Shown here: positions 1,309 to 22,197 of the stretch, piece by piece
Layout of the letters: each line of letters opens with the position of its first letter
Numbering within the stretch: position 1 is the first letter of the stretch
Source: Flavobacteriaceae bacterium
Lineage (GTDB): Bacteria; Bacteroidota; Bacteroidia; Flavobacteriales; Flavobacteriaceae
Assembly: GCA_965224465.1 (NCBI GenBank)
Contig: OZ245049.1
Coordinates: forward strand, 3,300,001-3,332,000
Length of the DNA: 32,000 nucleotides
Direction: 5' to 3'
Program-made: the position numbers and the translations under genes
Notes under the pieces: generated by a model
Seen by the model: the letters and a program-made list of their open reading frames with translations, nothing else
Database searches by the model: none
Told to the model about the DNA's origin: nothing

Positions 1309-1353
1309 TGAACAAAAGTCGAACTGTGATTGTTTTTTACTTCTAAATTACAA

Positions 1354-1381: not shown

Positions 1382-1426
1382 CAAAGCAATAAAAAGTTGC
1401 AATCAAACATTTTTATCAATTCAAAT

Positions 1427-4147: not shown

Positions 4148-4174
4148 TAAAAAAATTAAATAAAATATTCAACA

Positions 4175-6868: not shown

Positions 6869-6896
6869 ATAGTTTTATTCATCTAAAAACAATGAT

Positions 6897-6923
6897 AAAA
6901 GGCGGCCAATTGGTCGCCTTTTT
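6897..6923 (+). terminator. Rho-independent terminator after module 1
   Basis: aaaaGGCGGCCaattGGTCGCCttttt. The GC-rich 7-8 bp stem has one G-U wobble and a 4-nt loop, and is followed by a T5 tract. It sits 29 nt after the stop at 6868. Confidence 0.7.
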
Positions 6924-7027
6924 ACGTGTTTAGGAAAGAGTAAAAAACAAACAAATATTTTTTAATTCGCTTCTTTTCTGTAACTTATAAAAAATTGCAA
7001 CCCCTTTTTAATTTTTAATTGCGAATT

Positions 7028-9751
7028 ATGAAAGAAATAATGAGTGTATTGCTCATCTGTTTGTGCGTGAATACATCTGTAAACGCACAGTCACGATGTA
7101 GTGTAAAAGGGATGGTGATTAGTGAGCGGTCAAATGCACCTTTATTGGGAGTGACAGTTCAAATCTTAGAAACATCTATATCGGACACTAGCAATGTGAA
7201 AGGGGAATTTAATCTCAAAAAATGTACCGCTGGAAAACAGGTGCTTAAGGTTCAATTACAAGGTTTTGAATCTTTAAAAGTTACGGTGTATTGCGTAGAA
7301 GGCAAAGAAATAGACCTTGGTTTTTTGGTCTTATCTAGAATGGTTGATGTATTGAACCAAGGAAGTGTTATTGCTATTTCAGAACTAGAGTTGTTAGATG
7401 ATGAAGGAACTGCTGATAATGTTTCTGGGGTGCTATCTGCTTCTAAAGATGCCTTTTCTAGAGCTGCCGCCTACAGTTTTGGTCAGGCGTGGTTTCGGGT
7501 TCGGGGTTATGACTCTAGATATGCGACAGTGATGATCAATGGTATTACAATGAATAAAATGTATGGTGGTCGTCCACAGTGGAGTAATTGGGGAGGTTTG
7601 AATGATGCGACCAGAAATCAAGAAGTTACTTTTGGATTGGCGCTCTCAGAGACTACTTTTGGAGATCTCGTAGGAACTACTAATATGATTACCACTGCCT
7701 CTCTGTATCGTCCTGGTACAAAAGTTACCGTTTCTGCGAGCAATAAAAGTTATAAAGGAAGGCTGATGGTGACATACGCTTCTGGCTTAAAAAACAAATG
7801 GGCCTATGTAGTTTCTGCCTCGAGACGATTTGCCAAAGAAGGCTATTTTCAAGGCTCGTATTATGATGCAAATTCCTTTTTTACATCCGTAGAATATCAA
7901 CCTAGCGCCAAACAGCATTTTAATTTAACGGCTATTTATGCTCAAAATAAACGAGGTAAAAATTCAGGACATACACAGGAAGTATGGGACTTGATGGGAA
8001 GAAAATACAATGCGTATTGGGGGCGTCAGGAAGGAAAAAAAAGAAATGCAAGAGTAAAGGAAGTAAGCGAACCTATAGTCATGTTGTCACATCAATTACA
8101 GTTCACAAATAAAACGGAGCTAAATACAAGTGTTGCATATCAATTTGGACATATAGGAAATAGCAGATTGGGCTATTATAAACAACAAAATCCAGACCCG
8201 ACGTATTATCGAAACCTACCGAGTTATTTTCAAGCAAACGACCCCCTAAATCCGGATATTGTCTCAGAAACAGTAAGCGCTTTTAAACAGGATGCTCATA
8301 GAAATCAGATTGATTGGCTAGACTTATATAAAACAAATAATGCCTTACAGAACCAAAATGCGGGGTATTATTTATATGAAGATAGAAATACGGATAGACA
8401 ATGGAGTGTACAAAGTGTTATGTCTACAGCATTGACCGAATATGCGAGTGTAAATTTAGGCTTGCGTTTTGTGAATTTTAAGAGTCAAAATTACGCAAAA
8501 ATGCTAGGTCTTTTAGGCGCTTCTTATTTTATGGATAGGGATGGTTTTAATAATACGTCCAATAACTTATTGTCAGATAATCCCATTTTAAAAGGGGATA
8601 AATTTAGGTATTACTATCTATTGTCAGTTCACAAAAATAGTATTTTTGGACAGTATCAATATCAAAAAAACAAGATAGATGCCTTTGCTTCTGCCCAATT
8701 CATAAATACTACCTATCAGCGAGAAGGACGGTTTCAAAACGAATTGTACAAGGAGAATTCATTGGGTTTGGGTAAAAAAACAACATTCGATACGCCACAG
8801 CTTAAAATGGGTATTACGTATAAAATTACTGGCCGTCATTTGTTAAGTCTAAATGCAGCAAGCATCTCTAAAGCGCCTACTTTACGGAATAGTTATTCCA
8901 ATGCTCGTGTGAATAATGATGTGGTTTTGAACCTAGAAAACGAGAAAATAAACACGGTAGATATTGGCTATATTCACAGGTCTCCTTTGATAAAATCCCG
9001 TATAACGGGCTATTATACGTCTTTTTCAAAAGGAAGCAAGATTTCAAGATATTACGACCAGAATTTAGGGGAGTTTGTAGCAGAAGTTTTGACGGATATA
9101 GAAAAAATTCATTGTGGTGTTGAAGTGAGTTTTGAATGCAAAATTAGCAGCGCGGTAAACGCTACTTTTGTAGCTGCTATTGGGAATTATACGTATGCTA
9201 ACAATCCTCAAAGTTATTATACTTCGGATCAGTCTTTGCTGGGGGCTGTAAATCCTGTTCCTACTTTTTTAAAGGGCTATCGTACTGCTGGTACGCCTCA
9301 ACAAGCTTTTTCTTTGGGAGTAGATTACCGTTCTCAAAATTATTGGTGGCTTGGAATAAATGCCAATCATTTATCACATACGTATGTAGATGTCGCTGCA
9401 GGCTTGCGAACGGAGCGTTTTTATACAAACCCTGTAACCAACCAATTGTATGCCAATGTGACAATGCAAGATGTGAAAGATATTTTAGTGCAAGAGCAGT
9501 TTGATAGCTATGTTCTTGTAAATATTATTGGTGGGAAATCTTGGAAGGTCAAAAAAAAGTATATCAGTTTGTTTATAAGTGCTAGTAATGTGCTGAATAC
9601 GAACTATAAAACGGGGGGTTATGAACAAGGAAGGTATGGGAATTATACATTATTAAAAAAAGATAAAGAAAGAGCAACTCCCATGTTTGGTGCTAAATAT
9701 TGGATGGGATATGGCTACTCGTATTACCTTAATCTATCGGTAAGTTTTTAG
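7028..9751 (+). CDS. CarboxypepD_reg-domain TonB-dependent-receptor-like outer-membrane barrel (paralog 2)
   Basis: The track ORF starts at TTG 7019; the first ATG is at 7028 (MKEIMSVLLICLCVNTSVNAQ). It is collinear with 1427..4147 and shares long identical runs such as GRPQWSNWGGLNDATRNQEVT, ITGRHL and TAGTPQQA. It ends ...YLNLSVSF. Confidence 0.8.
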   Translation: MKEIMSVLLICLCVNTSVNAQSRCSVKGMVISERSNAPLLGVTVQILETSISDTSNVKGEFNLKKCTAGKQVLKVQLQGFESLKVTVYCVEGKEIDLGFLVLSRMVDVLNQGSVIAISELELLDDEGTADNVSGVLSASKDAFSRAAAYSFGQAWFRVRGYDSRYATVMINGITMNKMYGGRPQWSNWGGLNDATRNQEVTFGLALSETTFGDLVGTTNMITTASLYRPGTKVTVSASNKSYKGRLMVTYASGLKNKWAYVVSASRRFAKEGYFQGSYYDANSFFTSVEYQPSAKQHFNLTAIYAQNKRGKNSGHTQEVWDLMGRKYNAYWGRQEGKKRNARVKEVSEPIVMLSHQLQFTNKTELNTSVAYQFGHIGNSRLGYYKQQNPDPTYYRNLPSYFQANDPLNPDIVSETVSAFKQDAHRNQIDWLDLYKTNNALQNQNAGYYLYEDRNTDRQWSVQSVMSTALTEYASVNLGLRFVNFKSQNYAKMLGLLGASYFMDRDGFNNTSNNLLSDNPILKGDKFRYYYLLSVHKNSIFGQYQYQKNKIDAFASAQFINTTYQREGRFQNELYKENSLGLGKKTTFDTPQLKMGITYKITGRHLLSLNAASISKAPTLRNSYSNARVNNDVVLNLENEKINTVDIGYIHRSPLIKSRITGYYTSFSKGSKISRYYDQNLGEFVAEVLTDIEKIHCGVEVSFECKISSAVNATFVAAIGNYTYANNPQSYYTSDQSLLGAVNPVPTFLKGYRTAGTPQQAFSLGVDYRSQNYWWLGINANHLSHTYVDVAAGLRTERFYTNPVTNQLYANVTMQDVKDILVQEQFDSYVLVNIIGGKSWKVKKKYISLFISASNVLNTNYKTGGYEQGRYGNYTLLKKDKERATPMFGAKYWMGYGYSYYLNLSVSF

Positions 9752-9768
9752 AATTTAAAGAAAATGTG

Positions 9769-12447
9769 ATGAAAAGATATAGAATGTTTTTTTTAGGCTT
9801 GATAATTTTATGTTTTTCTACATGTGTGGAGGATCAAAATTTTAAGACACCTGAAACTACGTGTATTCCACCAGTTTTGAAAGTAAATGCAACCATTGGA
9901 GAGGTGAAATCACTTTATAAAGGTACGGTAACACAAATTAAAGAAAAATTAATTATTGAAGGTTATGTGATTTCCTCAGATCTAAAAGGGAACTTTTATA
10001 GAACGTTGCACTTTCAAAATAGCCCAGATAATCCTACGGATGGTTTACAGTTAGATGTTGATATGCAACAGATGTACACAATGTATCCAGTAGGGAGTAA
10101 AATCATTATAAATACCCAAGGGTTGTATATTGATAATTACCATGGTGTACTAAAAATAGGAGGATTGTATCCGAAGTTTGGTGGTGGGGTTGGAGTTGGG
10201 CGCTTGTCTAGTGTATTGGCAAAAAAAGTAGTGCTTGTATCCTGTGATCCTCCAGTAAAAATAATTCCTAGACTTGTGAAAATTGAGGACTTAGATGATG
10301 CCATGATTCATACTCTTATTAAATTTGACAAGGTAGAAATTGCACCAGATTCACAGTGTCAGTCGTATGCTTTAGCTTCCAAAAACACCAGTGTTTTTGT
10401 ACGTGATTGTGAAGGGAATAGTATTGTTTTAAGAACTAGTGGCTATGCCGATTTTCAATCCGAATTGTTACCAGTGGGTAGTGGAGAATTACATGCAATT
10501 TTAGGAAAGTATAATGATAAGTTTCAAGTGACAATCCGTGATACCAAAGACCTAAACTTTGAGGGTGATCGATGTAATGGGGAGCATTTTACCTGTGTGG
10601 CTCCTACTGTGAATACTACAATACAGGATGTTAAAAACAAGTATCAAGGATCCTTATTACAGTTGAAAGAATCTCTTGTTTTTGAAGGGGTAGTAACGGC
10701 AAATGATAAAAGTGGGAATGCGTATAAGTACATATATGTACAGGATAAAACGGGAGGAATAAAAATTAAGATCAATCAAAAAGAATTGTATTTACGGGGG
10801 TTTAGTATCGGAAAAAAAATAGTAGTTGTATCTCAAGATTTGTACATCGATTCGCTTAGTGGAGAATTACAACTTGGCGGTTTATACGAAGGGAATTTAG
10901 GCAATATAGAGCGCTATGACATATTTAAACATTTTTTTGTAAGTGATAAAACAGTTGTTTTAATGCCTGAAAATTTAATGTTAAATGAGCTGTCAATGGA
11001 GGAAATTGGACGTTTTATACGGATTGATAAGGTACAGTTTATGGAGAAGGAATTGAATTTTGTAAGCGAAAAATCGAATGGATCTACACGTACCTTGGTG
11101 GATTGTATGGCAAATACGATTGATGTTCGAACCAGTAAATATGCTAATTTTGCAAAGGCGAAACTTCCATCAAAAATGGGAGCGGTGCAAGGGGTGCTCG
11201 GTTTTTATAATGGGAATTTTCAATTGTTTTTTCGAGATATTAATGATGTAAAATTGATGACAGAAGAACCCTGCAATGCCGTCGAAAATGGAAAATTTGT
11301 TACGGTGTCCGAAGTTCGGGATATGTTTTCAGGTTCGGTATTGAACAGCATTCAAAATATAAAAATAAAAGCTGTGATTACCTCGAATGCAGCTGAATTG
11401 AATATCACAGAAATTAGTGCTTTTATACAAGATAAAACAGCTGCTATTGCGCTTCGTTTTAGTAGTGCTCATGGCTTGAAATTCGGAGATGAAGTGGAAC
11501 TTTCTTTATTGGGTGCTAGTTTGGAAGAGTATAAAGGATTGTTACAGTTAAATCATATTCCAGTGGCGAATATTATCAGTACTCAGCCAGGTTTTTTACC
11601 GAGTCCGAAAACAATTACGCTGCCGCAAGCCTTGACTGGGGATTTCGAATCTATGTTGGTTAGGATCAAAAAAATTCAATTTAAAGATGTAGGAAAAACG
11701 TATAAAGGAGAGAATAAAATCACAGATTGTGTGAACGATTTAAATGTATATGTGCGTTATCAGTCCTTGTTTTCTGGGTTTAAAGTGAATGGGAAAAATG
11801 GTGATGTTACTGGGATTATGACGCAGTATGAAGTGCCACAACTCTATCTTAGAAAATCTTATGATGTTACTTTTTATGATGATTATATAGACTGTGCTTC
11901 GGTAGGAACTGTTGATTTTCCGCTTTTTATTTCAGAGATAGCAGACCCCAATAATAATTCTGGAGCGCGATTTATAGAACTGTACAATTCCTCCAGCGAT
12001 GTACAAAGTATGAATGGATGGCAGTTAAAACGGTATACAAATGCAAATACAACGAGTACAAAAAGCATTCAATTAGAAGGCTACACGATTCCTGCCAATA
12101 GTGCTTTTGTGATTTCTCCAAATGCATCAGAATTTTTGAAGATGTATGGATTTGAACCTGATTTAGGAGTTTCAAAAGGAGGTCCTGCAGATTCTAATGG
12201 AGACGATACCATTGTCTTATTAAATCCTACTGGTGAGGTGGTGGATATTTTTGGACGAATTGGGGAGGATGGTTCTGGAACCAATCACGAGTTTGAGGAT
12301 GGACGTGCTTTAAGAAATAAAAGTGTAGAGGTAGGAAATGCTGTTTTTAGCTTTTCAGAATGGACTGTTTGGAACGATACAGGTGCTGCGAATACAATAA
12401 AAGAACCACAAAATGCTCCCGATGATTTTAGCCCTGGAATTCGGTAA
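9769..12447 (+). CDS. Lipoprotein with three DUF5689-type repeats and a C-terminal lamin-tail domain (paralog 2)
   Basis: The track ORF starts at GTG 9766; ATG is at 9769. Lipobox ILCFSTC. It has the same three-repeat plus LTD layout as 4175..6868 (VNATIGEVKSLY, VNTTIQDVKNKY, VTVSEVRDMF; LFISEIADPNNNSGARFIELYNSS...NGDDTIVL). Confidence 0.75.
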   Translation: MKRYRMFFLGLIILCFSTCVEDQNFKTPETTCIPPVLKVNATIGEVKSLYKGTVTQIKEKLIIEGYVISSDLKGNFYRTLHFQNSPDNPTDGLQLDVDMQQMYTMYPVGSKIIINTQGLYIDNYHGVLKIGGLYPKFGGGVGVGRLSSVLAKKVVLVSCDPPVKIIPRLVKIEDLDDAMIHTLIKFDKVEIAPDSQCQSYALASKNTSVFVRDCEGNSIVLRTSGYADFQSELLPVGSGELHAILGKYNDKFQVTIRDTKDLNFEGDRCNGEHFTCVAPTVNTTIQDVKNKYQGSLLQLKESLVFEGVVTANDKSGNAYKYIYVQDKTGGIKIKINQKELYLRGFSIGKKIVVVSQDLYIDSLSGELQLGGLYEGNLGNIERYDIFKHFFVSDKTVVLMPENLMLNELSMEEIGRFIRIDKVQFMEKELNFVSEKSNGSTRTLVDCMANTIDVRTSKYANFAKAKLPSKMGAVQGVLGFYNGNFQLFFRDINDVKLMTEEPCNAVENGKFVTVSEVRDMFSGSVLNSIQNIKIKAVITSNAAELNITEISAFIQDKTAAIALRFSSAHGLKFGDEVELSLLGASLEEYKGLLQLNHIPVANIISTQPGFLPSPKTITLPQALTGDFESMLVRIKKIQFKDVGKTYKGENKITDCVNDLNVYVRYQSLFSGFKVNGKNGDVTGIMTQYEVPQLYLRKSYDVTFYDDYIDCASVGTVDFPLFISEIADPNNNSGARFIELYNSSSDVQSMNGWQLKRYTNANTTSTKSIQLEGYTIPANSAFVISPNASEFLKMYGFEPDLGVSKGGPADSNGDDTIVLLNPTGEVVDIFGRIGEDGSGTNHEFEDGRALRNKSVEVGNAVFSFSEWTVWNDTGAANTIKEPQNAPDDFSPGIR

Positions 12448-12458
12448 TTTCAAATGAT

Positions 12459-12595
12459 GGTTTAGAAATGGAATTATTTTTTGTTTTAACTAGACGAAAA
12501 CTCTAAGGATAGCCCTATCTATTGTTCTGTTTTTTAACAACGCTAGAACGTAAAACAACCTATTTATATCGATTATTTTGGATTGTAATTGGTAG
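12459..12595 (+). repeat. Right copy of the ~135-bp inverted repeat (partner at 50..182)
   Basis: ggtttagaaatggaattattttttgttttaactagacgaaaactctaaggatagccctatctattgttctgttttttaacaacgctagaacgtaaaacaacctatttatatcgattattttggattgtaa. It starts 12 nt after the stop at 12447. Relative to the flanking gene it has the same orientation as the left copy. Confidence 0.8.
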
Positions 12596-12619: not shown

Positions 12620-12792
12620 TCTGATTTAGAATTACACTTGTTATTTCTATCAAAAATAGAGATAGCTAAAAATATTAATTTTTCTGTGCGAGCGTACATT
12701 GTGGGGCATATTGTAGATTGTTTGTATAAGTGTCAATAAAAATTAAATAAAAACGATATGTATAAAAATAAAGAATTTATTTATCTGTTGTT
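12620..12792 (+). pseudogene. Decayed internal fragment of an I2-type immunity-like lipoprotein gene
   Basis: It aligns by eye to 17511..17690 inside the 17280..17837 gene (tctgatttagaatta...gagatagctaaaaa...gcgagcgtacattg.ggggcatattgtagattgtttgtataagtgtcaa.aaaaattaaataaaaacgata.gtataaaaa). It has a small deletion and an in-frame TAA where the intact gene has GAA. Both gene ends are missing. Confidence 0.85.
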
Positions 12793-13062
12793 TTAGATGA
12801 TTGATCACAGTTGTTGACTGGGAATGTTTTCAAGATATCATTGAGAACATTTACAAGAAAAAACGGTTAATTAAGAGCCATACGGTTACGAGTTTGTTTT
12901 ATGCTCCGTTAAATTAAACGGCACCGAAAAACCGTTAATTTGGTTTTAGTAAATAAAAAGACAGAAAAATCAACGATTTGACTTAGGCATAATTTAACGT
13001 TTATTCTATAAATGATATACGAAACAGCATGTTTGAACCGTTATATGTCTTTAAAATAAAAA

Positions 13063-13434
13063 ATGGGAAAAATTAAAATTAAGAGCTCGACTGTAGCAAA
13101 AATAATTATTGACAAAAAAGGATATGGAACAATAAAAAATGAAAATAAGGAATATGAGATAGAAAATGGACAACACGAAATTTATGCTAAATCTGCTTGG
13201 TGTGGTAGTCAAAAAATAACAGTAAATATTACAGATGATAAAATTATAACATTGACTCTAAATAGTTTTAAAAATGAAGGTATTGTTAAAGCTGTATTTA
13301 TGTTATTAGCTGGACTTCTTATATTTACTAAAAACGTAATCTTCGGGATAATTGCAGGGGTAGTGTTTTTGTATCCATTATATTATGTAACAATTGGAAA
13401 AGATAAATATTTAGAATTAGTTGAGATTACATAA
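13063..13434 (+). CDS. Hypothetical small membrane protein
   Basis: 123-aa ORF with ATG preceded by an A-rich leader. The soluble N-half is followed by two hydrophobic stretches (AVFMLLAGLLIF, IFGIIAGVVFLYPLYYV). I recognise no family. Confidence 0.5.
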   Translation: MGKIKIKSSTVAKIIIDKKGYGTIKNENKEYEIENGQHEIYAKSAWCGSQKITVNITDDKIITLTLNSFKNEGIVKAVFMLLAGLLIFTKNVIFGIIAGVVFLYPLYYVTIGKDKYLELVEIT

Positions 13435-13582
13435 TATAATTAAATATTGGGTAGTGTCAACCATGAACTCAAAATCCCTGCTCTCGATTGTTTCGTGTGG
13501 TTTTAGGAGCTTAAGAGTACTTAAAACGAATTCTTTTACTAAAAATAATTAAATTGGTAGTATGCAGATTGTATATCTTTTG

Positions 13583-13590
13583 TATATTTG
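13583..13590 (+). promoter_or_regulatory. Candidate -7 box upstream of the tssD-like gene
   Basis: TATATTTG is a perfect TAnnTTTG. The nearest upstream TTG (13554..13556) is 26 nt away, which is longer than usual. The box lies ~185 nt upstream of the ATG at 13774. Confidence 0.25.
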
Positions 13591-13773
13591 GAAAATGTTA
13601 TATAACGTATGCGTGTTACTGTATTAGAATTAAATACAGAATACACGGCATTAACGTAGTGTAGCTATCACGGATATACCTTAATTTTAGAGGGATTGTG
13701 GATGTATTTGGGTTGCAACAAGACTGCTAACACAAACGGCATAAAAAAACAAACAAACAAACAAAACAAAATA

Positions 13774-14460
13774 ATGAGTTTTAAACTTAAAGTATTTATT
13801 GATGGAGAAGAAAGTAATGTATTAAGATATAACTTAAATTTAAGTCAAAGTTCTGACATTACAGGAAGACCTACTCAAAAACCTGTCTTACAAAAACTTT
13901 TATTAGTGTTAGAATCTAACAATAAAATTGATTTGATGCAGTGGATGATTTCTCCAAATCAAACTAAACAAATAGAACTGCACATTCAAGAACGACAAGG
14001 AGAAAGAACAAGAATTCTTTACTTTTCGGATGTTAACTTAGTCGGTTTAGAAACCACATTTTCTGCTACAGGAAATATACCTATGACAGATAATTTACAG
14101 ATTACTGCTGCAGGGCTCAATACAAACAATTCTGCTGTTGAATATTCTGCATCTTGGAGAACTACTTTTCCTGAACAAGAAGCAGAAGTAACAACTATTG
14201 AGCAAGAAAGAAAAATAACTAGTTATTACTTAACGAATACAGAAAATAATAAGATAGAAGATTATAATATTGATGATATTATATTGTTGAATATTAAAAC
14301 TGAAAATCGAATAGGAGATGTAATGACCATCAACTTAAATGATAAAAAGCATGATTTTGAATATAACGGAATTATCTTAGAGAACGATACTCTTAAAAAC
14401 ATTAAAATTGAAAATAATTTAGAACAAATTGAGTTAAAAGTAGTAGCTCAAACAGTATAA
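13774..14460 (+). CDS. tssD: Type VI secretion tube protein TssD/Hcp-like with a ~100-aa C-terminal extension
   Basis: The track ORF starts at TTG 13696; ATG 13774 follows an A/C-rich leader. The N-terminal ~128 aa follow the Bacteroidetes TssD pattern as I recall it: MSFKLKVFIDGEESNVLRYNLNLSQSSDITGRPTQKP, LESNNKIDLMQWMISPNQTK, YFSDVNLVGLETTF, IPMTDNLQITAAGL, ...SASW. Residues ~129-228 (14158..14457) are extra. Confidence 0.65.
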   Translation: MSFKLKVFIDGEESNVLRYNLNLSQSSDITGRPTQKPVLQKLLLVLESNNKIDLMQWMISPNQTKQIELHIQERQGERTRILYFSDVNLVGLETTFSATGNIPMTDNLQITAAGLNTNNSAVEYSASWRTTFPEQEAEVTTIEQERKITSYYLTNTENNKIEDYNIDDIILLNIKTENRIGDVMTINLNDKKHDFEYNGIILENDTLKNIKIENNLEQIELKVVAQTV

Positions 14461-14464
14461 ACGT

Positions 14465-16078
14465 ATGAAAAAAACAGGATTTACCATCTCATTTGAAGAC
14501 GGAGAAACGTTAACAAGATATTTAACACCAGTATTACAAGCAGAATATATAGTTGCCATAAAACCAAAAGATTTTGATGGAAGTTATGGAATAGATTGGT
14601 GTGAAATGAGTACTGACCTTACAAAAATTGAAAAATTTCAAGAAACCAATGTAGCAGATATTAGCCACGTTCTAGATAAAGCTACAACACAATTTAAGGC
14701 TAGCCCAACAACTCAAGATAAACAAAATTATGTCCGAGACTTATATGTTTTTGAAAGTTATTACGGAAAAGAGATGCCTATTACTTGGGTAAACTTAGCC
14801 TACGATAAGGTAGCAACTTTAGAGATAACGCCTTTGTTAATAAATGGTAAAAGGAATAAAAAAACAGATTTTTTAACCATTGAGAAAAATGACAATTTTA
14901 AAATATCATACAAGGGGACTACTGATGAAGACAGTAATCCGAATATAAAAATAGAAAAACTGAAAGATGGCAAAGCTCAAGAAATTGAAATTACAGCGTT
15001 AAAAACTTTTTCTCAAGCGCAAGAAATAATTATAAAAGATTATTTAGGAAAAGAAGTCGGAAAAATAGAAATGGTAGCTAATGATGTGCTAGATTTAAAT
15101 GTGAAAATTATTCCAGTAGTACTCAATCATACTTCACAAGTAGCAGATGCTCAAAATATATATGCTGCTGCAATAAAAGCAGAAAACATTGATAAGGATA
15201 GTCTAAAAACAACATTACAAACTAAATCATTTAACCAAACAGGTGTAAACTGTATTATAGAACCCCTAAAAGCTATTCCAGAATGCATAGTAATAGATGT
15301 TACTAAAGACAATTGGAGTGAGTTTTATAAAGGAGGCATATTTCAAAATTGGGATTATTCCAGTACAACGGTAAAACCTATTGTTTCTAAAGATGAAGAT
15401 GGAGATAAACGCTATCATACTAGAGATATGGGGACGGAACGTTTTTTACTTGATAAATTAGAAGATCATTATTATAAAAAATACGGAAAAAATCATAAGG
15501 GAGCCTTGGTTTTTGTTACAGATAAAAATTATATAATTCCAAATTTACAAGGCTATTCGCAAACAGACCCTATACGAAGCCAAGGAACAGTTATATTTAA
15601 ACCTGGTTTAGGTGATGCTACTGTTTATGCGCACGAATTAGGGCATATGTTAGGACTTGAACATAACTTTGTTAATGATATTAATGAACTTACAAGCATA
15701 AATGATAACTTAAATAATTTAACACGCAACAAAAGTGTTGCCGATAAAAAACAAGAAATCGAAGAAGATATAGCTTTTAAAGAAAATTATATTAAAGTAG
15801 ATATAGAAAAAATAAACGATTTGAAAACGGTACGTGAACAATCACAATCTATAAAAAATAAAATTTTAGATATCCAAGAAGCAATTAAAAACACTCAAAA
15901 TTCTATCATCCAACTAAAGGATAAATTACAAAGAATAGATATTAAAACTACTACAGCTAATTTTAAAGTAACAAAAGGTAAATCTAAAAACTATATGGAT
16001 TATATAAATAACAGAACTTTTTTTAGTAAATATCAATCCCAAATAGTAAAAGAGGAGCTTATTAAATTTTATATATGA
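14465..16078 (+). CDS. Putative T6SS-associated polymorphic effector with a metzincin-type zinc metallopeptidase domain
   Basis: 537 aa with no signal peptide (MKKTGFTISFEDGETL). The ATG lies 5 nt after the tssD-like stop. The zinc motif HELGHMLGLEH (15632..15664) is HExxHxxGxxH. The Met-turn-like NYMDY (15989..16003) resembles the M43 ulilysin/pappalysin flavour. The stop overlaps the next ATG (ATGA at 16075..16078). Confidence 0.7.
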   Translation: MKKTGFTISFEDGETLTRYLTPVLQAEYIVAIKPKDFDGSYGIDWCEMSTDLTKIEKFQETNVADISHVLDKATTQFKASPTTQDKQNYVRDLYVFESYYGKEMPITWVNLAYDKVATLEITPLLINGKRNKKTDFLTIEKNDNFKISYKGTTDEDSNPNIKIEKLKDGKAQEIEITALKTFSQAQEIIIKDYLGKEVGKIEMVANDVLDLNVKIIPVVLNHTSQVADAQNIYAAAIKAENIDKDSLKTTLQTKSFNQTGVNCIIEPLKAIPECIVIDVTKDNWSEFYKGGIFQNWDYSSTTVKPIVSKDEDGDKRYHTRDMGTERFLLDKLEDHYYKKYGKNHKGALVFVTDKNYIIPNLQGYSQTDPIRSQGTVIFKPGLGDATVYAHELGHMLGLEHNFVNDINELTSINDNLNNLTRNKSVADKKQEIEEDIAFKENYIKVDIEKINDLKTVREQSQSIKNKILDIQEAIKNTQNSIIQLKDKLQRIDIKTTTANFKVTKGKSKNYMDYINNRTFFSKYQSQIVKEELIKFYI

Positions 16079-16094
16079 AAACAATAAGTATTTT
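15491..16094 (+). repeat. Exact 604-nt direct repeat, copy 1 (expressed effector 3' third plus first 20 nt of the downstream gene)
   Basis: Block-by-block comparison with 17861..18464 shows no mismatch, with an offset of exactly 2370 nt. Identity starts at aatcataagggagcc. It ends at 16095 (t) versus 18465 (a). Confidence 0.9.
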
Positions 16095-16656
16095 TAAAAA
16101 GATTAGTTTACTATATGTTTTTATAGTTTTTGTTTCTTGTAGTTCTTCTATGGTGCTTAAGTACAATACTATACCTGCTGGGGGGGTTGCTTACAAGCAA
16201 CTTGATGTTTTTGGAGGATATATATGGCACAGAGATAAAAAAGGAAAAATTAATATTAATAAAAAAAATCTTCAAAATATTTACATAATTACTAAAAATG
16301 GTAATGAAGACTATTTTGAATTTTTAGAGAGTTATTCTTTTTTTTTATGCAGTCATAGTGATAAACGTCGTATCGCTAAGAGTTTAAATTTTTCAGAAAG
16401 AACTTTGGTTGCAGCTTATTGTGTAGAGTATCTTTATAAATGTCAAAAAGAAATTAGTGAAAGTAATATGTATAAAAATTACAGGTTAGTTAGACTTTTT
16501 TTGAGAACAGATAACGGCGATAGTAACAAGTACAATCGAGAGTTCAAAAAACACGATTACTACGGTTTAAAATTATTAAAAAAACACCATTTAAAACATT
16601 ATAAATATTTCCCGGATTTAGATACAATACGCTATAAAAAAAGTATTAGTGATTAA
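16075..16656 (+). CDS. Lipoprotein, putative immunity protein I1
   Basis: 193 aa with lipoprotein signal MKTISIFKKISLLYVFIVFVSC. It is translationally coupled to the effector (ATGA). It shares the invariant C-terminal tail NKYNREFKKHDYYGLKLLKKHHLKHYKYFPDLDTIRYKKSISD with six downstream paralogs. Confidence 0.7.
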   Translation: MKTISIFKKISLLYVFIVFVSCSSSMVLKYNTIPAGGVAYKQLDVFGGYIWHRDKKGKININKKNLQNIYIITKNGNEDYFEFLESYSFFLCSHSDKRRIAKSLNFSERTLVAAYCVEYLYKCQKEISESNMYKNYRLVRLFLRTDNGDSNKYNREFKKHDYYGLKLLKKHHLKHYKYFPDLDTIRYKKSISD

Positions 16657-16679
16657 AGATGTAGGGTTAATGCTTCTCT

Positions 16680-17270
16680 AATCATAAGGGAGCCTTGGTT
16701 TTTGTTACAGATAAAAATTATATAATTCCAAATTTACAAGGCTATTCGCAAACAGACCCTATACGAAGCCAAGGAACAGTTATATTTAAACCTGGTTTAG
16801 GTGATGCTACTGTTTATGCGCACGAATTAGGGCATATGTTAGGACTTGAACATAACTTTGTTAAAGATTTTAAAGATCTTACAAGCATAAATGATGACTT
16901 AAATAATTTAACACGCAACAAAAGTGTTGCCGATAAAAAACAAGAAATCGAAGAAGATATAGCTTTTAAAGAAAACTATATAAATGATGATATAAAAAAA
17001 GTAGAAGAATTAAAAGTTAAAGATAAACTATCAGAAAAAGAAAAAAAAGAACTGCAGGGATTACAAGAAAATATTGATGAAACAGAAAAATCTATTCAGA
17101 AATTAAGAAATAGGTCACAAAAGATAGATGTACAAACCACTGTAGCTAATTTGAAAGTAGCTGAAGGAAAAACTAAAAACTATATGGACTATATAAGTAA
17201 TAGAATTTATTTTGCTAAATACCAAGCAGAAATAGTGAAGAAAGAAGTTGTCGATTTTTATCAAAAATAA
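16680..17270 (+). pseudogene. Start-less effector C-terminal cassette B (orphan/silent toxin module, divergent variant)
   Basis: It is homologous to effector codons ~343-537. The first ~184 nt are identical to 15491.., and it diverges after ~300 nt. It keeps HELGHMLGLEH and NYMDY. An in-frame TAA lies 4 codons upstream of the homology start and there is no ATG. The M at 16695 in the track is a TTG that encodes Leu in the full-length gene. Confidence 0.8.
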
Positions 17271-17279
17271 AATAAGATT

Positions 17280-17837
17280 ATGAATTTTATAAAAAGAAGT
17301 AGTTCTCTTCTTATTGTTTTATGTTTGTTTTTTTCATGCACTACATATAAAAAAATAACAGAAGAGAGTTTAATTGATGAAACATTTCCTGACATCAATG
17401 TTTATGGTGGGTTTTTATGGTCTAAGAAAAAAAATAAGACTATATTAATTCATTACAAAAATTTGAAACGAATAATTAAATTAACAAAAAAAAGTGATAA
17501 TATTTTTTTTTCTGATTTAGAATTATACCTGTTGTTTCTGTCAAAAAAGAGAAAAGAGATAGCTAAAAACATTAACTTTTCTGAGCGAGCGTACATTGCG
17601 GGGCATATTGTAGATTGTTTGTATAAGTGTCAAGAAAAATTAAATAAAAACGATAGGTATAAAAACAAGGAATTTATTTATCGATTATTGTCTCCGTGGG
17701 ATAGTAACAAGTACAATCGAGAGTTCAAAAAACACGATTACTACGGTTTAAAATTATTAAAAAAACACCATTTAAAACATTATAAATATTTCCCGGATTT
17801 AGATACAATACGCTATAAAAAAAGTATTAGTGATTAA
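17280..17837 (+). CDS. Lipoprotein, putative immunity protein I2 (most divergent N-terminal two thirds)
   Basis: 185 aa with lipobox LCLFFSC. The ATG lies 9 nt after the cassette B stop. It has the same invariant C-terminal tail as I1. Confidence 0.7.
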   Translation: MNFIKRSSSLLIVLCLFFSCTTYKKITEESLIDETFPDINVYGGFLWSKKKNKTILIHYKNLKRIIKLTKKSDNIFFSDLELYLLFLSKKRKEIAKNINFSERAYIAGHIVDCLYKCQEKLNKNDRYKNKEFIYRLLSPWDSNKYNREFKKHDYYGLKLLKKHHLKHYKYFPDLDTIRYKKSISD

Positions 17838-17860
17838 AGGTGTAGGGTTAATGCTTCTCT

Positions 17861-18448
17861 AATCATAAGGGAGCCTTGGTTTTTGTTACAGATAAAAATT
17901 ATATAATTCCAAATTTACAAGGCTATTCGCAAACAGACCCTATACGAAGCCAAGGAACAGTTATATTTAAACCTGGTTTAGGTGATGCTACTGTTTATGC
18001 GCACGAATTAGGGCATATGTTAGGACTTGAACATAACTTTGTTAATGATATTAATGAACTTACAAGCATAAATGATAACTTAAATAATTTAACACGCAAC
18101 AAAAGTGTTGCCGATAAAAAACAAGAAATCGAAGAAGATATAGCTTTTAAAGAAAATTATATTAAAGTAGATATAGAAAAAATAAACGATTTGAAAACGG
18201 TACGTGAACAATCACAATCTATAAAAAATAAAATTTTAGATATCCAAGAAGCAATTAAAAACACTCAAAATTCTATCATCCAACTAAAGGATAAATTACA
18301 AAGAATAGATATTAAAACTACTACAGCTAATTTTAAAGTAACAAAAGGTAAATCTAAAAACTATATGGATTATATAAATAACAGAACTTTTTTTAGTAAA
18401 TATCAATCCCAAATAGTAAAAGAGGAGCTTATTAAATTTTATATATGA
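17861..18448 (+). pseudogene. Start-less effector C-terminal cassette A' (identical to the expressed effector 3' third)
   Basis: It is 100% identical to 15491..16078 and is preceded by the unit-end motif ...gttaatgcttctct. There is no ATG; the track start at 17876 is the same internal TTG (Leu). Its stop overlaps the next ATG at 18445..18448. Confidence 0.8.
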
Positions 18449-18464
18449 AAACAATAAGTATTTT
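17861..18464 (+). repeat. Exact 604-nt direct repeat, copy 2
   Basis: See 15491..16094. Confidence 0.9.
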
Positions 18465-19020
18465 AAAAAAGATTAGTGTATTCTTTATTTTTGTTTTGGT
18501 TGTTTCTTGTAAACCTACAAAAACACTAAAATCTAACACGATAATAAAAGGTGCCTCTACCTATGAACAACTTAATAAGTTTGGAGAATATATATGGTTC
18601 AAGGATTCAAAAGGAAAAGTTAATATTAATAAAAAAAATCTTCAAAACATTTATACAATTACTAAAAATGGTAATGAAGAATATTTTTATTTTTTAACAT
18701 CCTACTCTTATCTTTTAGTTGTTGATAAATCAAATATTGCTAAGAGTTTAAATTTTTCAGAAAGAACTTTGCTTGCAGCTTATTGTGTAGAAAACCTCTA
18801 TAAATGTCAAAAAGAAATTAGTGAAAACAATATGTATAAAAATTACAGGTTTGTTAGACTTTTTTTGAGAACAGATAACGGCGATAGTAACAAGTACAAT
18901 CGAGAGTTCAAAAAACACGATTACTACGGTTTAAAATTATTAAAAAAACACCATTTAAAACATTATAAATATTTCCCGGATTTAGATACAATACGCTATA
19001 AAAAAAGTATTAGTGATTAA
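18445..19020 (+). CDS. Lipoprotein, putative immunity protein I3
   Basis: 191 aa with lipobox FVLVVSC. ATGA overlap with cassette A'. Invariant C-terminal tail. Confidence 0.7.
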   Translation: MKTISILKKISVFFIFVLVVSCKPTKTLKSNTIIKGASTYEQLNKFGEYIWFKDSKGKVNINKKNLQNIYTITKNGNEEYFYFLTSYSYLLVVDKSNIAKSLNFSERTLLAAYCVENLYKCQKEISENNMYKNYRFVRLFLRTDNGDSNKYNREFKKHDYYGLKLLKKHHLKHYKYFPDLDTIRYKKSISD

Positions 19021-19175
19021 AGGTGTAGGGTTAATGCTTCTCTAATCAAATGTGTAGTGTGATTTATGTTAGTTTAAGTAATACTAAAGCTAGTTCTAGA
19101 AATGTAATCCACTTAGAATAAGAAAGTTTACTTTAGAATCAATTATTATAAGTTACCTGAAATTAAATGGGGACT

Positions 19176-19228
19176 GTAAATATCAATCCCAAATTGTAAA
19201 AGAGGAGGTCATTAAATTTTATAAATGA
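19176..19228 (+). pseudogene. 53-nt vestige of the effector 3' end (unit 1)
   Basis: gtaaatatcaatcccaaattgtaaaagaggaggtcattaaattttataaatga matches effector 16026..16078 (gtaaatatcaatcccaaatagtaaaagaggagcttattaaattttatatatga). The ATGA overlap with the next gene is retained. An in-frame stop lies upstream. Confidence 0.8.
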
Positions 19229-19800
19229 AAACAGTAAATAATTTAAAAAAGATAGGTGTATTCTTTATTTTTGGTTTGGTTGTTTCTTGTAAAACTACAA
19301 AAACACTAAAATATAGTACTTTGATAAAAGGAGAGTCAGTTTACAAGAGATTTGATGTTTTTGGAGGATATATATGGCACAGAGATAAAACAGGGAAAAT
19401 TAATATTAACAAAAAAAATCTTCAAAATATTTACATAATTACTAAAGGAGGAAATGACGCGTTTTTTGAATATCTAGATCTTTATACACGACATTTATGT
19501 GGGCATAAACGGCGTGTTTCTAATAGTTTAAATTTTCCAGAAAGAACCTTAGTTGTTGCTTATTGCGTTGAGTATCTTTATAAATGTCAAAAAGAAATTA
19601 GTAAAAATAATATGTATAAAAATTATAAGTTTGTTTATCGTTTTTTGAGAACAGATAACGGCGATAGTAACAAGTACAATAGAGAATTAAAAAAACACGA
19701 TTACTACGGTTTAAAATTATTAAAAAAACACCATTTAAAACATTATAAATATTTCCCGGATTTAGATACAATACGCTATAAAAAAAGTATTAGTGATTAA
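19225..19800 (+). CDS. Lipoprotein, putative orphan immunity protein I4
   Basis: 191 aa with lipobox FGLVVSC and the invariant tail (REL instead of REF at its start). Confidence 0.7.
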   Translation: MKTVNNLKKIGVFFIFGLVVSCKTTKTLKYSTLIKGESVYKRFDVFGGYIWHRDKTGKININKKNLQNIYIITKGGNDAFFEYLDLYTRHLCGHKRRVSNSLNFPERTLVVAYCVEYLYKCQKEISKNNMYKNYKFVYRFLRTDNGDSNKYNRELKKHDYYGLKLLKKHHLKHYKYFPDLDTIRYKKSISD

Positions 19801-19955
19801 AGGTGTAGGGTTAATGCTTCTCTAATCAAATGTGTAGTGTGATTTATGTTAGTTTAAGTAATACTAAAGCTAGTTCTAGAAATCTAATCCCCTTAGAGTA
19901 AGAAAGTTTACTTTAGAATCAATTATTATAAGTTGCCTGAAATTAAATGGGGATT

Positions 19956-20008
19956 GTAAATATCAAGCCCAAATTGTAAAAGAGGAGTTAATTAAATTTT
20001 ATAGATGA
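19956..20008 (+). pseudogene. 53-nt vestige of the effector 3' end (unit 2)
   Basis: It occupies the same position and has near-identical sequence to 19176..19228. Confidence 0.8.
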
Positions 20009-20580
20009 AAACAATAAATAATTTAAAAAAGATAGGTGTATTCTTTATTTTTGGTTTGGTTGTTTCTTGTAAAACTACAAAAACACTAAAATCTGCTACC
20101 ATAATAACAGGGGAATCTATTTACGACCAATTTGACAATTTTGGAGAATATATATGGTACAGAGATAAAAAAGGAAAAATTAATATTAACAAAAAAAATC
20201 TTAAAGAAATTTATAATATCACTAAAAAAGGAAATGAAGAATCTTTTGAATTTTTACAGAGTTACACCTTGCATTTAAGTAGTGATAAACGTCGTGTCGC
20301 TAAAGGTTTAAACTTTTCAGAAAGAACCTTGGTTGCTGCTTATTGCGTAGAGTACCTCTACAAGTGTGAAAAAGAAATTAGCAAAGAAAATATGTATAAA
20401 AATTATAGGTTTGTTAGACGCTTTTTGAGACCATATGGTAGCGATATAAATAACTACAATCGAGAATTAAAAAAACACGATTACTACGGTTTAAAATTAT
20501 TAAAAAAACACCATTTAAAACATTATAAATATTTCCCGGATTTAGATACAATACGCTATAAAAAAAGTATTAGTGATTAA
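20005..20580 (+). CDS. Lipoprotein, putative orphan immunity protein I5
   Basis: 191 aa with lipobox FGLVVSC. The middle is variable (…RFLRPYGSDINNYNREL…) and the tail is invariant. Confidence 0.7.
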   Translation: MKTINNLKKIGVFFIFGLVVSCKTTKTLKSATIITGESIYDQFDNFGEYIWYRDKKGKININKKNLKEIYNITKKGNEESFEFLQSYTLHLSSDKRRVAKGLNFSERTLVAAYCVEYLYKCEKEISKENMYKNYRFVRRFLRPYGSDINNYNRELKKHDYYGLKLLKKHHLKHYKYFPDLDTIRYKKSISD

Positions 20581-20735
20581 AGGTGTAGGGTTAATGCTTC
20601 TCTAATTAAATGTGTAGTGTGATTTATGTTAGTTTACGTAATACTAAAGCTAGTTCTAGAAATTTAATCCCCTTAGAATAAGAAAGTTTATTTTAGAATC
20701 AATTATTATAAGTTGCCTGAAATTAAATGGGGACT

Positions 20736-20788
20736 GTAAATATCAATCTCAAATAGTAAAAGAGGAGTTAATTAAATTTTATAAATGA
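20736..20788 (+). pseudogene. 53-nt vestige of the effector 3' end (unit 3)
   Basis: It occupies the same position and has near-identical sequence to 19176..19228. Confidence 0.8.
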
Positions 20789-21351
20789 AAACAATAAATA
20801 ATTTTAAAAAGATAAGTGTATTCTTTATTTTTGTTTTGGTTGTTTCTTGTAAACCTACAAAAACACTAAAATCTAATACCGAAATTATAGGGAGATCTGC
20901 TTATGACGAGTATAATGCTTTTGGAGAATATATATGGTATAGAGATAGTAAAGGGGGAATTAGTATTAATAAAAAAAATCTCAAAAAAATTTATGCAATG
21001 ACTAAAAAAGGAAATATAGAATATTTTGAATTTTTAGAGGGTTATACTGCACATTTAAGTAGGGATAAACGGCGTGTTGCTAAAAGTTTGAATTTTTCAG
21101 AAATAACTTTTGTTACAGCTTATTGTGTAGAGAACCTCTATAAGTGTCAAAAAGTAATTAGCAAAAATAATTTCTTTAAAAAGTATAAATTTGTTAATCG
21201 TTTTTTAGGAGTAAATATTAACAAGTACAATCGAGAGTTCAAAAAACACGATTACTACGGTTTAAAATTATTAAAAAAACACCATTTAAAACATTATAAA
21301 TATTTCCCGGATTTAGATACAATACGCTATAAAAAAAGTATTAGTGATTAA
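20785..21351 (+). CDS. Lipoprotein, putative orphan immunity protein I6
   Basis: 188 aa with lipobox FVLVVSC. It has a 3-codon deletion relative to its paralogs just before the invariant tail. Confidence 0.7.
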   Translation: MKTINNFKKISVFFIFVLVVSCKPTKTLKSNTEIIGRSAYDEYNAFGEYIWYRDSKGGISINKKNLKKIYAMTKKGNIEYFEFLEGYTAHLSRDKRRVAKSLNFSEITFVTAYCVENLYKCQKVISKNNFFKKYKFVNRFLGVNINKYNREFKKHDYYGLKLLKKHHLKHYKYFPDLDTIRYKKSISD

Positions 21352-21506
21352 AGGTTTAGGGTTAATGCTTCTCTAATCAAATGTGTAGTGTGATTTATGT
21401 TAGTTTACGTAATACTAAAGCTAGTTCTAGAAATCTAATCCCTTTAGAATAAGAAAGTTTATTTTAGAATCAATTATTATAAGTTGCCTGAAATTAAATG
21501 GGGACT

Positions 21507-21559
21507 GTAAATATCAATCCCAAATTGTAAAAGAGGAGGTCATTAAATTTTATATATGA
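21507..21559 (+). pseudogene. 53-nt vestige of the effector 3' end (unit 4)
   Basis: It occupies the same position and has near-identical sequence to 19176..19228. Confidence 0.8.
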
Positions 21560-22131
21560 AAACAATAAATAATTTTATAAAGATAAGTGTATTCTTTGTT
21601 TTTGTTTTGGTTGTTTCTTGTAAACCTACAAAAACACTAAAATCTAACACGATAATAAAAGGTGCCTCTACCTATGAACAACTTAATAAGTTTGGAGAAT
21701 ATATATGGTTCAAGGATTCAAAAGGAAAAGTTAATATTAATAAGAAAAATCTCGAAAAAATTCATATAATCTCGAAAAAAGGGAATATAGAATATTTTAA
21801 TCTTTTAACATCTTACTCTTATCTTTTAGATGTTGATAAATCAAATATTGCTAAAAGTTTAAATTTTTCAGAAAGAACTTTGGTTGTAGCTTATTGTGTA
21901 GAATGCCTCTATAAATGTCAAAAAGAAATTAGTAAAAACAATATGTATAAAAATTATAAGTTTGTTTATCGTTTTTTGAGAACAGATAACGGCGATAGTA
22001 ACAAGTACAATCGAGAGTTCAAAAAACACGATTACTACGGTTTAAAATTATTAAAAAAACACCATTTAAAACATTATAAATATTTCCCGGATTTAGATAC
22101 AATACGCTATAAAAAAAGTATTAGTGATTAA
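21556..22131 (+). CDS. Lipoprotein, putative orphan immunity protein I7 (mosaic of I3-, I6- and I4-like segments)
   Basis: 191 aa with lipobox FVLVVSC. 21621..21750 is nucleotide-identical to the matching part of I3 (18511..18640). The C-terminal half matches I4 (SKNNMYKNYKFVYRFLRTDNGDSNKYNRE). Confidence 0.7.
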   Translation: MKTINNFIKISVFFVFVLVVSCKPTKTLKSNTIIKGASTYEQLNKFGEYIWFKDSKGKVNINKKNLEKIHIISKKGNIEYFNLLTSYSYLLDVDKSNIAKSLNFSERTLVVAYCVECLYKCQKEISKNNMYKNYKFVYRFLRTDNGDSNKYNREFKKHDYYGLKLLKKHHLKHYKYFPDLDTIRYKKSISD

Positions 22132-22197
22132 AGGTGTAGGGTTAATGTCTCGTAGTTAGATAGTTGTCTAAGTGTTGTGTTTGTGCTTTTTAATTTG

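Follow-up and report, generated by a model that had tools for sequence, protein, structure and literature searches.

Gene organization of the locus

We analyzed a stretch of 32,000 nt (hereafter the window) from a Flavobacteriaceae bacterium (GenBank assembly GCA_965224465.1, contig OZ245049.1, positions 3,300,001 to 3,332,000), in which a tssD/hcp gene is followed by the gene of a putative type VI secretion system (T6SS) effector, two 5'-truncated effector copies (C1 and C2) and seven lipoprotein genes (L1 to L7). Open reading frame (ORF) analysis revealed an unbroken gene run on the + strand (13774-22131) with tiny or overlapping junctions (Table 1). The effector gene starts 4 nt after tssD, and ATGA overlaps join the effector gene to L1 (16075-16078) and C2 to L3 (18445-18448). 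All coordinates given in a preliminary description of the window, including the tssD stop at 14460 and the next ATG at 14465, were reproduced, as was its count of seven lipoprotein genes, one of them directly after the effector gene, each identified by its ORF and a lipobox signal peptide.

The same description regarded the two effector 3' copies as start-less. They are 5'-truncated, and each has a lipoprotein gene of its own, but an in-frame TTG yields ORFs of 190-191 aa in C1 and C2, one of which is annotated publicly as a protein (P0092), so that they are not strictly without a start. Further downstream, vestiges of the effector 3' end were located ahead of L4-L7, where they had been reported. 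Each vestige closes a 204-nt spacer, which opens with 28 shared nt after the stop and continues with a middle part of ~125 nt; the vestige itself is ~50 nt long. The spacer middle (19049-19171 and equivalents) is 96-97% identical between copies and gave no Rfam, promoter-motif or effector match. Repetition within the array is far beyond chance (604 nt at 100%; spacers 96-97%). Tandem Repeats Finder missed the array because the period exceeds 500 nt.

The whole array lies in a low-GC island, with a G+C content of 0.24-0.30 over 13-22 kb compared with 0.32-0.40 in the flanks. The candidate -7 promoter box TATATTTG is the sole intergenic TAnnTTTG of the locus and lies 191 nt ahead of the tssD ATG. 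No + strand terminators were found between the genes, and a sigma-70 promoter scan of the locus returned hits at chance level, the model being unsuited to Bacteroidota.

Table 1 Features of the tssD-effector-lipoprotein locus. Positions refer to the window.
Feature	Position	Strand	Basis
L2-type lipoprotein remnant, pseudogene with in-frame stop, left edge of low-GC island	12620..12790	+	tblastn, translation
Candidate Bacteroidota-type -7 promoter box	13583..13590	+	motif scan; function inferred only
tssD/hcp, C-terminally extended, 228 aa	13774..14460	+	ATG 13774, stop 14460; ORF, Pfam
Full-length effector, 537 aa, 61 kDa	14465..16078	+	ORF
Upstream homology arm A (codons 343-442, zinc-binding motif included)	15491..15790; repeated 16680-16979, 17861-18160	+	repeat search
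Expressed variable tip V0 (residues ~443-537)	15791..16078	+	divergence from C1, identity to C2
Lipoprotein L1, 193 aa, candidate cognate immunity protein	16075..16656	+	ORF, family alignment, lipobox ...VSC
Silent cassette C1 (arm A + alternative tip V1)	16680..17270	+	tblastn, alignment
Lipoprotein L2, 185 aa, divergent paralog	17280..17837	+	ORF, identity matrix
Silent cassette C2 (arm A + tip same as expressed V0)	17861..18448	+	repeat comparison
Lipoprotein L3, 191 aa	18445..19020	+	ORF; exact public database copy P0034
Four 204-nt spacers	19021..19224, 19801-20004, 20581-20784, 21352-21555	+	repeat search; copies 96-97% identical
~50-nt effector 3'-end vestiges ahead of L4-L7	19172-19224, 19952-20004, 20732-20784, 21503-21555	+	comparison with effector 3' end
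Orphan lipoprotein L4, 191 aa	19225..19800	+	ORF
Orphan lipoprotein L5, 191 aa	20005..20580	+	ORF
Orphan lipoprotein L6, 188 aa	20785..21351	+	ORF
Orphan lipoprotein L7, 191 aa	21556..22131	+	ORF

Silent cassettes share homogenised arms with the expressed effector gene

Homology of C1 and C2 with the effector gene begins exactly at nt 15491 (codon 343), and this junction falls on the pentanucleotide AATCA, the end of the 28-nt spacer sequence common to all units. C2 reproduces the expressed tip without a mismatch: 604 nt (effector nt 15491-16094) are 100% identical, and the identity ends 20 nt inside the lipoprotein genes. C1 is the only truly alternative tip. It shares 72% identity with effector residues 343-536 (tblastn), with 93% amino acid identity in the first 100 aa and a drop to 48% in the last 97, and its frame of 196 codons is intact with the catalytic motifs and NYMDY retained. 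The ratio of nonsynonymous to synonymous divergence (dN/dS) of its tip, V1, is 0.42.

Synonymous divergence (dS) changes abruptly along these copies. The three copies of arm A are 98-100% identical, and a comparison of C1 with the expressed gene gives a dS of 0.017 for the arm and 0.86 for the tip. A second arm, arm B, comprises the last 111 nt of L1-L7 plus a spacer that they share; the 111 nt are identical in seven of seven copies (dS 0-0.1), and the lipoprotein cores that lie between the two arms show a dS of 0.45-1.3 with a dN/dS of 0.34-0.60. Each exchangeable module thus comprises a variable toxin tip and a variable lipoprotein core, with a homogenised arm on either side.

Given 604 nt without a difference between the expressed tip and C2, next to lipoproteins L1 and L3 with only 79% identity, the simplest reading is a recent gene conversion confined to arm A and the tip. 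Plain duplication is disfavoured because the lipoprotein gene would have been copied too, and decay because 604 perfect bases would not remain. The same comparison bears on an alternative in which the array is a fossil record: successive horizontal insertions or tandem duplications would have left cassettes that are decaying debris and never re-activated, with orphan immunity as their sole function. Such a model has been proposed for Vibrio cholerae arrays (PMC5361080), and it would agree with the four ~50-nt vestiges, which are too short to restore a toxin, with the L2-like pseudogene fragment upstream of tssD and with related arrays that are older and more diverged (74-87% identity). Neither duplication nor decay, however, explains the perfect tip next to diverged lipoprotein genes. 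The intact C1 frame with its catalytic and Met-turn motifs and a tip dN/dS of 0.42 also speak against debris, and arms with a dS of about 0 beside cores at 0.45-1.3 imply ongoing gene conversion. We therefore consider the fossil record unlikely as an account of the whole array.

Arrays of the same design recur in related genomes. A Cellulophaga locus (L008) holds five lipoprotein genes and three vestiges, and two Algibacter loci (L010, L012) hold one vestige each. Another locus (L011) contains a second, 5'-truncated effector copy with a 498-nt block 96% identical to the first copy, and L001/L006 carry an effector fragment spanning residues 326-407. In a global profile search, many short C-terminal 'proteins' from other genomes begin at profile positions ~320-365, which is the same breakpoint region. 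The most conserved stretch of the effector (KGALxFVTD...GYSQ...RSQGT...HELGHMLGLEH) thus appears to serve repeatedly as a recombination site. The array architecture is general among relatives, and that of the window is the youngest and cleanest example seen. The displaced-cassette logic put forward in the preliminary description hence gains evidence at the nucleotide level and from related genomes.

The effector is predicted to be a metzincin-like protease

The motif HELGHMLGLEH occupies effector residues 390-400 (nt 15632-15664) and NYMDY residues 509-513 (nt 15989-16003). In a family alignment of 21 sequences, H390, E391, H394, G397 and H400 of the HExxHxxGxxH pattern are invariant and NxMDY is nearly so, and a hypervariable stretch of ~100 residues separates the two motifs. 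M511 is conserved in at least 90% and follows a short strand in an AlphaFold2 (AF2) model, which makes it the Met-turn candidate.

This model, calculated from the family alignment, reached a predicted local distance difference test score (pLDDT) of 85 and a predicted template modelling (TM) score of 0.80. It consists of all-beta, immunoglobulin (Ig)-like domains (residues 1-205) and an alpha/beta catalytic domain (209-537) with an antiparallel helical hairpin (425-496); the variable tip V0 extends from the middle of the hairpin through the Met-turn to the C-terminal helix. Foldseek searches with the model retrieved the catalytic domains of ADAMTS-5, ADAMTS-4 and ADAMTS-1 (probability 0.99-1.0, E 5e-4, ~215 aligned columns), and those with the N-terminus retrieved Ig-like domains. 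A hidden Markov model search of PDB sequences likewise ranked ADAMTS-5 first (E 1e-3). The preliminary description recognised a metzincin zinc site and a Met-turn; both motifs are conserved across the family, and the model retrieves ADAMTS.

Like adamalysin/ADAMTS (M12B), matrixin (M10) and pappalysin (M43), the effector combines HExxHxxGxxH with a downstream Met (NxMDY) in a predicted alpha/beta fold. In contrast to these metzincins, an inserted antiparallel hairpin of two helices (~70 residues) separates its third zinc ligand from the Met-turn, it has neither a pro-domain nor a signal peptide, and it carries N-terminal Ig-like domains unique to its family. A T9SS (type IX secretion system) C-terminal domain was not matched either. 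We found 33 close relatives, all in Flavobacteriaceae, and an exhaustive profile search returned 258 cluster representatives (132 at E<=1e-10). Sequence and model together suggest a metzincin-like protease outside any named family, and full-text literature searches found no description of the effector family.

The upstream gene encodes a C-terminally extended TssD

TssD residues 1-128 (nt 13774-14157) match Pfam family PF17642 over positions 1-127/128 with 88.5 bits (cutoff 25.8; E 4.4e-25), and residues 1-118 match the solved structure of Hcp1 (PDB 6bdc_A, E 2.6e-7). Both matches confirm the earlier assignment of the N-terminal ~128 aa to TssD/Hcp. They are followed by an extension of ~100 aa (residues 129-228, nt 14158-14457) without family match. 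A word-indexed search returned 18 TssD relatives, including one from Labilibaculum, outside the Flavobacteriales. Wherever complete, they are of the extended type (~228-239 aa), and the ~100-aa extension appears to be specific to this clade. It probably also answers the concern, voiced in the preliminary description, that a 61-kDa effector is large for loading into the Hcp lumen.

Outside the window, the source genome encodes a second extended TssD (P0075, 64% identical), which as called is without ~60 residues of its N-terminus and ends aberrantly. One or more further loci of the extended-TssD type, possibly degraded, are thus present in the genome.

At least two more, unrelated cargo families likewise follow extended TssD genes (L031, 10703-12037; L033, 6691-8063; L032, 6698-8086), with the L033 cargo seemingly split by a frameshift or stop. 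The N-termini of these cargos (MGKNTFTISFDDGTT and ...GNTMTIEFPEVTE) resemble that of the effector (MKKTGFTISFEDGET). The first ~20 effector residues share 52% identity over 21 residues with a 444-aa cargo encoded after the Labilibaculum extended TssD, and the effector N-terminus resembles that of the third cargo family as well. We rejected the Labilibaculum cargo as an effector homolog, the likeness being confined to the first ~20 residues.

Homologous loci connect the effector family to T6SS

In relatives, the effector body is joined to known T6SS carriers. It is fused to a complete VgrG in P0024, P0086, P0093 and P0119 and to the PAAR-like DUF4280 in P0106, P0114 and P0201; a TssD fusion in P0096 falls just short of the cutoff (25.6 vs 25.8 bits). 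VgrG is encoded adjacent to and upstream of an effector homolog in two Flavobacterium loci (L016, L026) and in L024 from Chryseobacterium salviniae, where a T6SS-iii cluster runs in the order TssF, TssC, three TssD, VgrG and effector homolog. The triad of extended TssD, effector and lipoprotein recurs in at least eight loci of the five marine genera Aquimarina, Cellulophaga, Tenacibaculum, Algibacter and Hyunsoonleella. In Aquimarina sp. RZ0 (L007, 9321-17440), no more than 1 kb separates the triad from a run of genes for a ClpV-like AAA+ protein (13060-15564), a tssB-like product (15627-16076) and tssC (16088-17440; Pfam 804 bits), and this is the sole marine locus found in which the triad touches T6SS core genes. 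The triad with its tssD adjacency, the carrier fusions, the Chryseobacterium cluster and the RZ0 linkage are four independent lines by which the effector family can be read as T6SS cargo, and they extend the Hcp link from which the preliminary description had proposed a T6SS effector.

An alternative is that the source genome lacks a T6SS and the locus does not function as a T6SS module there, the island being an inactive remnant or its TssD-like protein a chaperone for another export or intracellular role. T6SS core genes are absent from the 32-kb window, the triad lies far from T6SS genes in several relatives (for example L001/L006), some homolog-carrying Flavobacteriaceae species are listed as T9SS-only (PMC8714846), and the second extended TssD of the source genome is seemingly truncated. 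Orphan hcp-effector islands distant from the main cluster are, however, normal for T6SS, and an inactive remnant would be at odds with intact frames and actively homogenised arms. An effector body joined to VgrG, PAAR-like carriers and T6SS-iii clusters in relatives, with neither a signal peptide nor a T9SS C-terminal domain match, likewise argues for T6SS export, and we regard this alternative as highly improbable.

Some Tenacibaculum genomes have been reported to contain parts of a T6SS (PMC9302122, PMC10013915). In an F. psychrophilum assembly (GCA_033880405.1; L030, 1351-3665), an effector homolog follows a 169-aa gene whose product is 38% identical to VgrG residues 457-630. A TssD identity for this gene was rejected, as it resembles a VgrG C-terminus. 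The homolog may belong to an island particular to this strain, or it may stem from misassembly or contamination.

The lipoproteins are candidate immunity proteins

All seven lipoproteins are paralogous and start with a signal peptide ending in (V/F)SC, with the lipobox Cys at about residue 22, as also found in homologs. Residues after this Cys are basic or neutral, which fits periplasmic retention under the export signals of Bacteroidota lipoproteins. We found 29 relatives, all unnamed. In their alignment the Cys of the signal peptide is invariant, the helical core varies, and the C-terminal motif YNREFKKHDYYGLKLLKKHH shows no variation between genera. In a structural model the core (residues 40-140) has a pLDDT of about 90 and the C-terminus is of low confidence.

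L2 stands apart with 48-51% identity to the other lipoproteins; at the protein level L1 and L3 share 79%, and L7 and L3 88%. The divergent lipoprotein L2 is paired with the divergent tip V1, and in the contrast within the window the arm distance is 0.05, the tip distance 0.52 and the lipoprotein distance 0.63. Position, export signal and co-divergence make the lipoproteins candidate immunity proteins.

They might instead form a variable family that merely travels with the effector, for example envelope proteins under diversifying selection or accessory or maturation factors of the protease. We found no fold or family match to known immunity proteins or protease inhibitors, conservation of YNREFKKHDYYGLKLLKKHH is very strong, which is unusual for immunity proteins, and a different downstream family is present in some triads (L009) and in Chryseobacterium loci. 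Yet the lipoprotein gene overlaps or directly trails the effector gene across genera, there is one lipoprotein gene per tip or tip vestige with the divergent tip next to the divergent lipoprotein, and a Chryseobacterium T6SS cluster contains a domain of the lipoprotein family. Polymorphic toxins, moreover, typically exchange immunity families between subtypes. We give a role other than immunity hardly any credence.

The Chryseobacterium domain belongs to a 350-aa protein (L024, 27-1079) beside TssF at the edge of the T6SS-iii cluster; it was recognised by hhalign (probability 97.5%, E 7e-12), and the protein has no Pfam match. VgrG-linked effector relatives in L018, L019, L024, L025 and L026 are followed by a different family of ~210-220 aa with a weak MORN_2 match, often as tandem pairs, and in the Tenacibaculum triad L009 a weak match to this family (12166-12477) takes the place of the lipoprotein family. 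Families of immunity candidates thus appear to be exchanged within the effector family.

Interpretation and proposed mechanism

Taken together, we interpret the locus as a T6SS-iii effector-immunity cassette island with an extended TssD carrier and estimate the probability of this reading at roughly three in four. Several observations weigh against it. Toxicity, protease activity, target and immunity are predictions from sequence and models, and the T6SS linkage is that of the effector family, documented in loci of relatives, with a T6SS of the source organism presumed. Domain searches of the window ORFs found no T6SS structural gene elsewhere in the 32 kb, in agreement with the preliminary description, and T. 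maritimum and F. psychrophilum are listed as being without T6SS (PMC8714846). For the protease, the target TM-scores of the ADAMTS hits in Foldseek are modest (0.31-0.42), indicating remote similarity. The best metzincin matches, M43 and M10, remain below the curated Pfam cutoffs (20.6 vs 23 bits and 19.3 vs 24 bits), as does Reprolysin; no Tox-MPTase (2-5) Pfam model matches the effector at E<=1, and NCBIfam returned nothing.

Further points concern the array and its lipoproteins, which match no solved structure in PDB by sequence or by fold. In a Mantel test across genomes, the divergence of the lipoproteins correlates about equally with that of the tip (rho 0.87) and that of the conserved arm (rho 0.86), and it is therefore only the in-window comparison that supports co-evolution. 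The lipoprotein C-terminus is invariant across genera, so that arm B partly reflects protein constraint; a dS of about 0 within the array nevertheless still requires homogenisation. Finally, none of the 204-nt spacers contains the Bacteroidota -7 motif, and expression of L4-L7 is assumed to depend on read-through.

In the mechanism that we propose for the cassette island, the operon would be transcribed from a promoter near 13583, with transcription reading through the whole array. The extended TssD would carry the 61-kDa effector outside the ring lumen, possibly recognising its first ~20 residues, and the T6SS would inject the TssD-effector complex into Gram-negative neighbours, with the protease acting in their periplasm. 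Periplasmic lipoproteins encoded directly downstream would shield the producer and its kin, and residues ~443-537 (hairpin, Met-turn and last helix) would present the polymorphic, immunity-specifying surface. Through homologous recombination, the expressed gene may receive the sequence of a silent module (C1-L2 or C2-L3), or the stretch up to that module may be deleted, and the sequence pattern suggests that at least one such conversion was recent. L4-L7 with their ~50-nt stubs would then be leftovers of earlier displacements, retained as an immunity repertoire against related toxins of neighbours.

A more specific proposal combines two ideas: the extended TssD would act as a portable adaptor that reads an N-terminal tag, and cassettes would swap the immunity-recognition half of the protease under a two-point lipoprotein lock. 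We offer this combination tentatively and think it rather doubtful as a whole. The tag would be a short N-terminal beta-strand with the consensus ~x-T-x-[FT]-[TI]-I-x-F-x-[DE] (here MKKTGFTISFED), common to at least three otherwise unrelated cargo families whose genes directly follow those of extended TssDs; if true, it would constitute a transferable T6SS-iii secretion signal for proteins exceeding the Hcp lumen. For the lock, the invariant lipoprotein motif YNREFKKHDYYGLKLLKKHH would plug the invariant active site and the variable lipoprotein body would read the variable hairpin. The zinc-site half would double as recombination arm, and specificity would change with catalysis untouched.

Comparison with known systems

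In V. cholerae, displacement of T6SS effectors leaves immunity arrays together with effector 3' remnants (Kirchberger et al. 2017, PMC5361080). Homologous recombination in conserved parts has been invoked for these arrays, and the old immunity genes are thought to protect against kin (PMC5361080). The array in the window shares with them putative orphan immunity genes after the active pair and 3' remnants of displaced effectors, as do L008, L010, L011 and L012. In V. cholerae, however, the immunity families are unrelated and horizontally acquired and whole effectors are displaced, whereas in the window all seven genes belong to a single family of paralogs, two long silent cassettes of the toxin persist and the exchange unit lies between two perfectly homogenised arms. 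The window also differs in its affiliation with T6SS-iii and in having an extended TssD carrier and no vgrG or adaptor gene.

Rhs, CdiA-CT and MafB loci resemble the window in that a full-length gene is followed by promoter-less, 5'-truncated copies with a shared stretch, a divergent C-terminal part and an immunity gene of their own. Recombination in the shared stretch can activate such orphans, and a Salmonella Rhs orphan has been activated experimentally, according to its citation in PMC5361080. In these systems the breakpoint is a demarcation motif (PxxxxDPxGL, VENN) ahead of an autonomous toxin domain, and whole toxin folds are swapped. In the window, by contrast, breakpoint and onset of divergence lie inside a single catalytic domain, whose zinc-binding half is constant and serves as an arm; only the hairpin after HExxH, the Met-turn and the last helix change, and the second arm sits in the 3' end of the immunity gene.

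For T6SS-iii of Bacteroidales, cognate minor Hcps were found to mediate effector secretion, as in Hcp1-Hcp2-Bte1 (PMC13213661). Such modules likewise have a dedicated Hcp/TssD directly upstream of its cargo; the two co-segregate, and the Hcp has been proposed as the recognition particle for secretion. These minor Hcps are ~15-16 kDa and form heterohexamers, with a 34-kDa effector apparently held in the ring (PMC13213661). The module proposed for the window differs in its single TssD with a ~100-aa extension, a 61-kDa cargo too large for the lumen and its place in an island outside any cluster. Orphan immunity arrays of Bacteroidota are also represented by rAID (recombinase-associated acquired interbacterial defence) of gut Bacteroidales, whose genes differ from the cognate immunity genes yet still confer protection from T6SS effectors (PMC12247911). 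rAID arrays are defined by an associated tyrosine or serine recombinase and are detached from the effector gene; the array in the window is continuous with an intact tssD-effector operon, and no recombinase domain was found in window ORFs of >=100 aa.

The locus hence follows a known design rather than a new principle, its logic being that of V. cholerae displacement arrays and of Rhs/CdiA/MafB orphans. The statement in the preliminary description that the combination was not recognised as described has to be softened, since displacement arrays (PMC5361080) and cognate Hcp-effector modules (PMC13213661) are both established. What is new is the uncharacterised effector family, a breakpoint within the catalytic domain, a second arm in the immunity gene, a homogeneous paralog array and the extended TssD.

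The module is compact and experimentally tractable, with one carrier Hcp, one metalloprotease effector family and one family of immunity candidates. To our knowledge, T6SS-iii biology is known almost wholly from gut Bacteroidales and Flavobacterium johnsoniae, and effectors of marine Flavobacteriaceae, including relatives of Tenacibaculum fish pathogens, are essentially uncharacterised. With its perfectly homogenised arms and a datable recent conversion, the array represents an unusually clean natural exchange of toxin tips. It bears on how Hcp loads cargo exceeding its lumen, on how immunity specificity can be re-coded within a single enzyme domain and on whether silent T6SS cassettes re-activate or are fossils supplying orphan immunity.

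Surroundings of the island

Scans of the window for tRNAs and Rfam families found none, so that there is neither a tRNA-linked island boundary nor a known RNA in the 204-nt spacers. PADLOC defence models returned nothing meaningful for the window, and phage, plasmid and defence-system explanations were dropped as no match supported them.

At the left edge of the island, the lipoprotein remnant (Table 1) constitutes an eighth copy, upstream of tssD, with 85% identity to L2 residues 78-136 (tblastn). This suggests that the island was rearranged or formerly reached further left. Between the remnant and tssD lies a 123-aa ORF (13063-13434, +) with a hydrophobic C-terminal segment and no Pfam, NCBIfam or PADLOC match. 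On the other flank, the island borders on the housekeeping genes mgtE, a 16S rRNA methyltransferase-like gene, serS and ribF. The left part of the window (221-12447) contains an Exo_endo_phos_3 nuclease gene followed by two consecutive gene pairs, each encoding a TonB-dependent receptor (CarboxypepD_reg) together with a protein of ~900 aa with DUF5689/lamin-tail domains, which is a duplicated uptake locus (TonB receptor/DUF5689).

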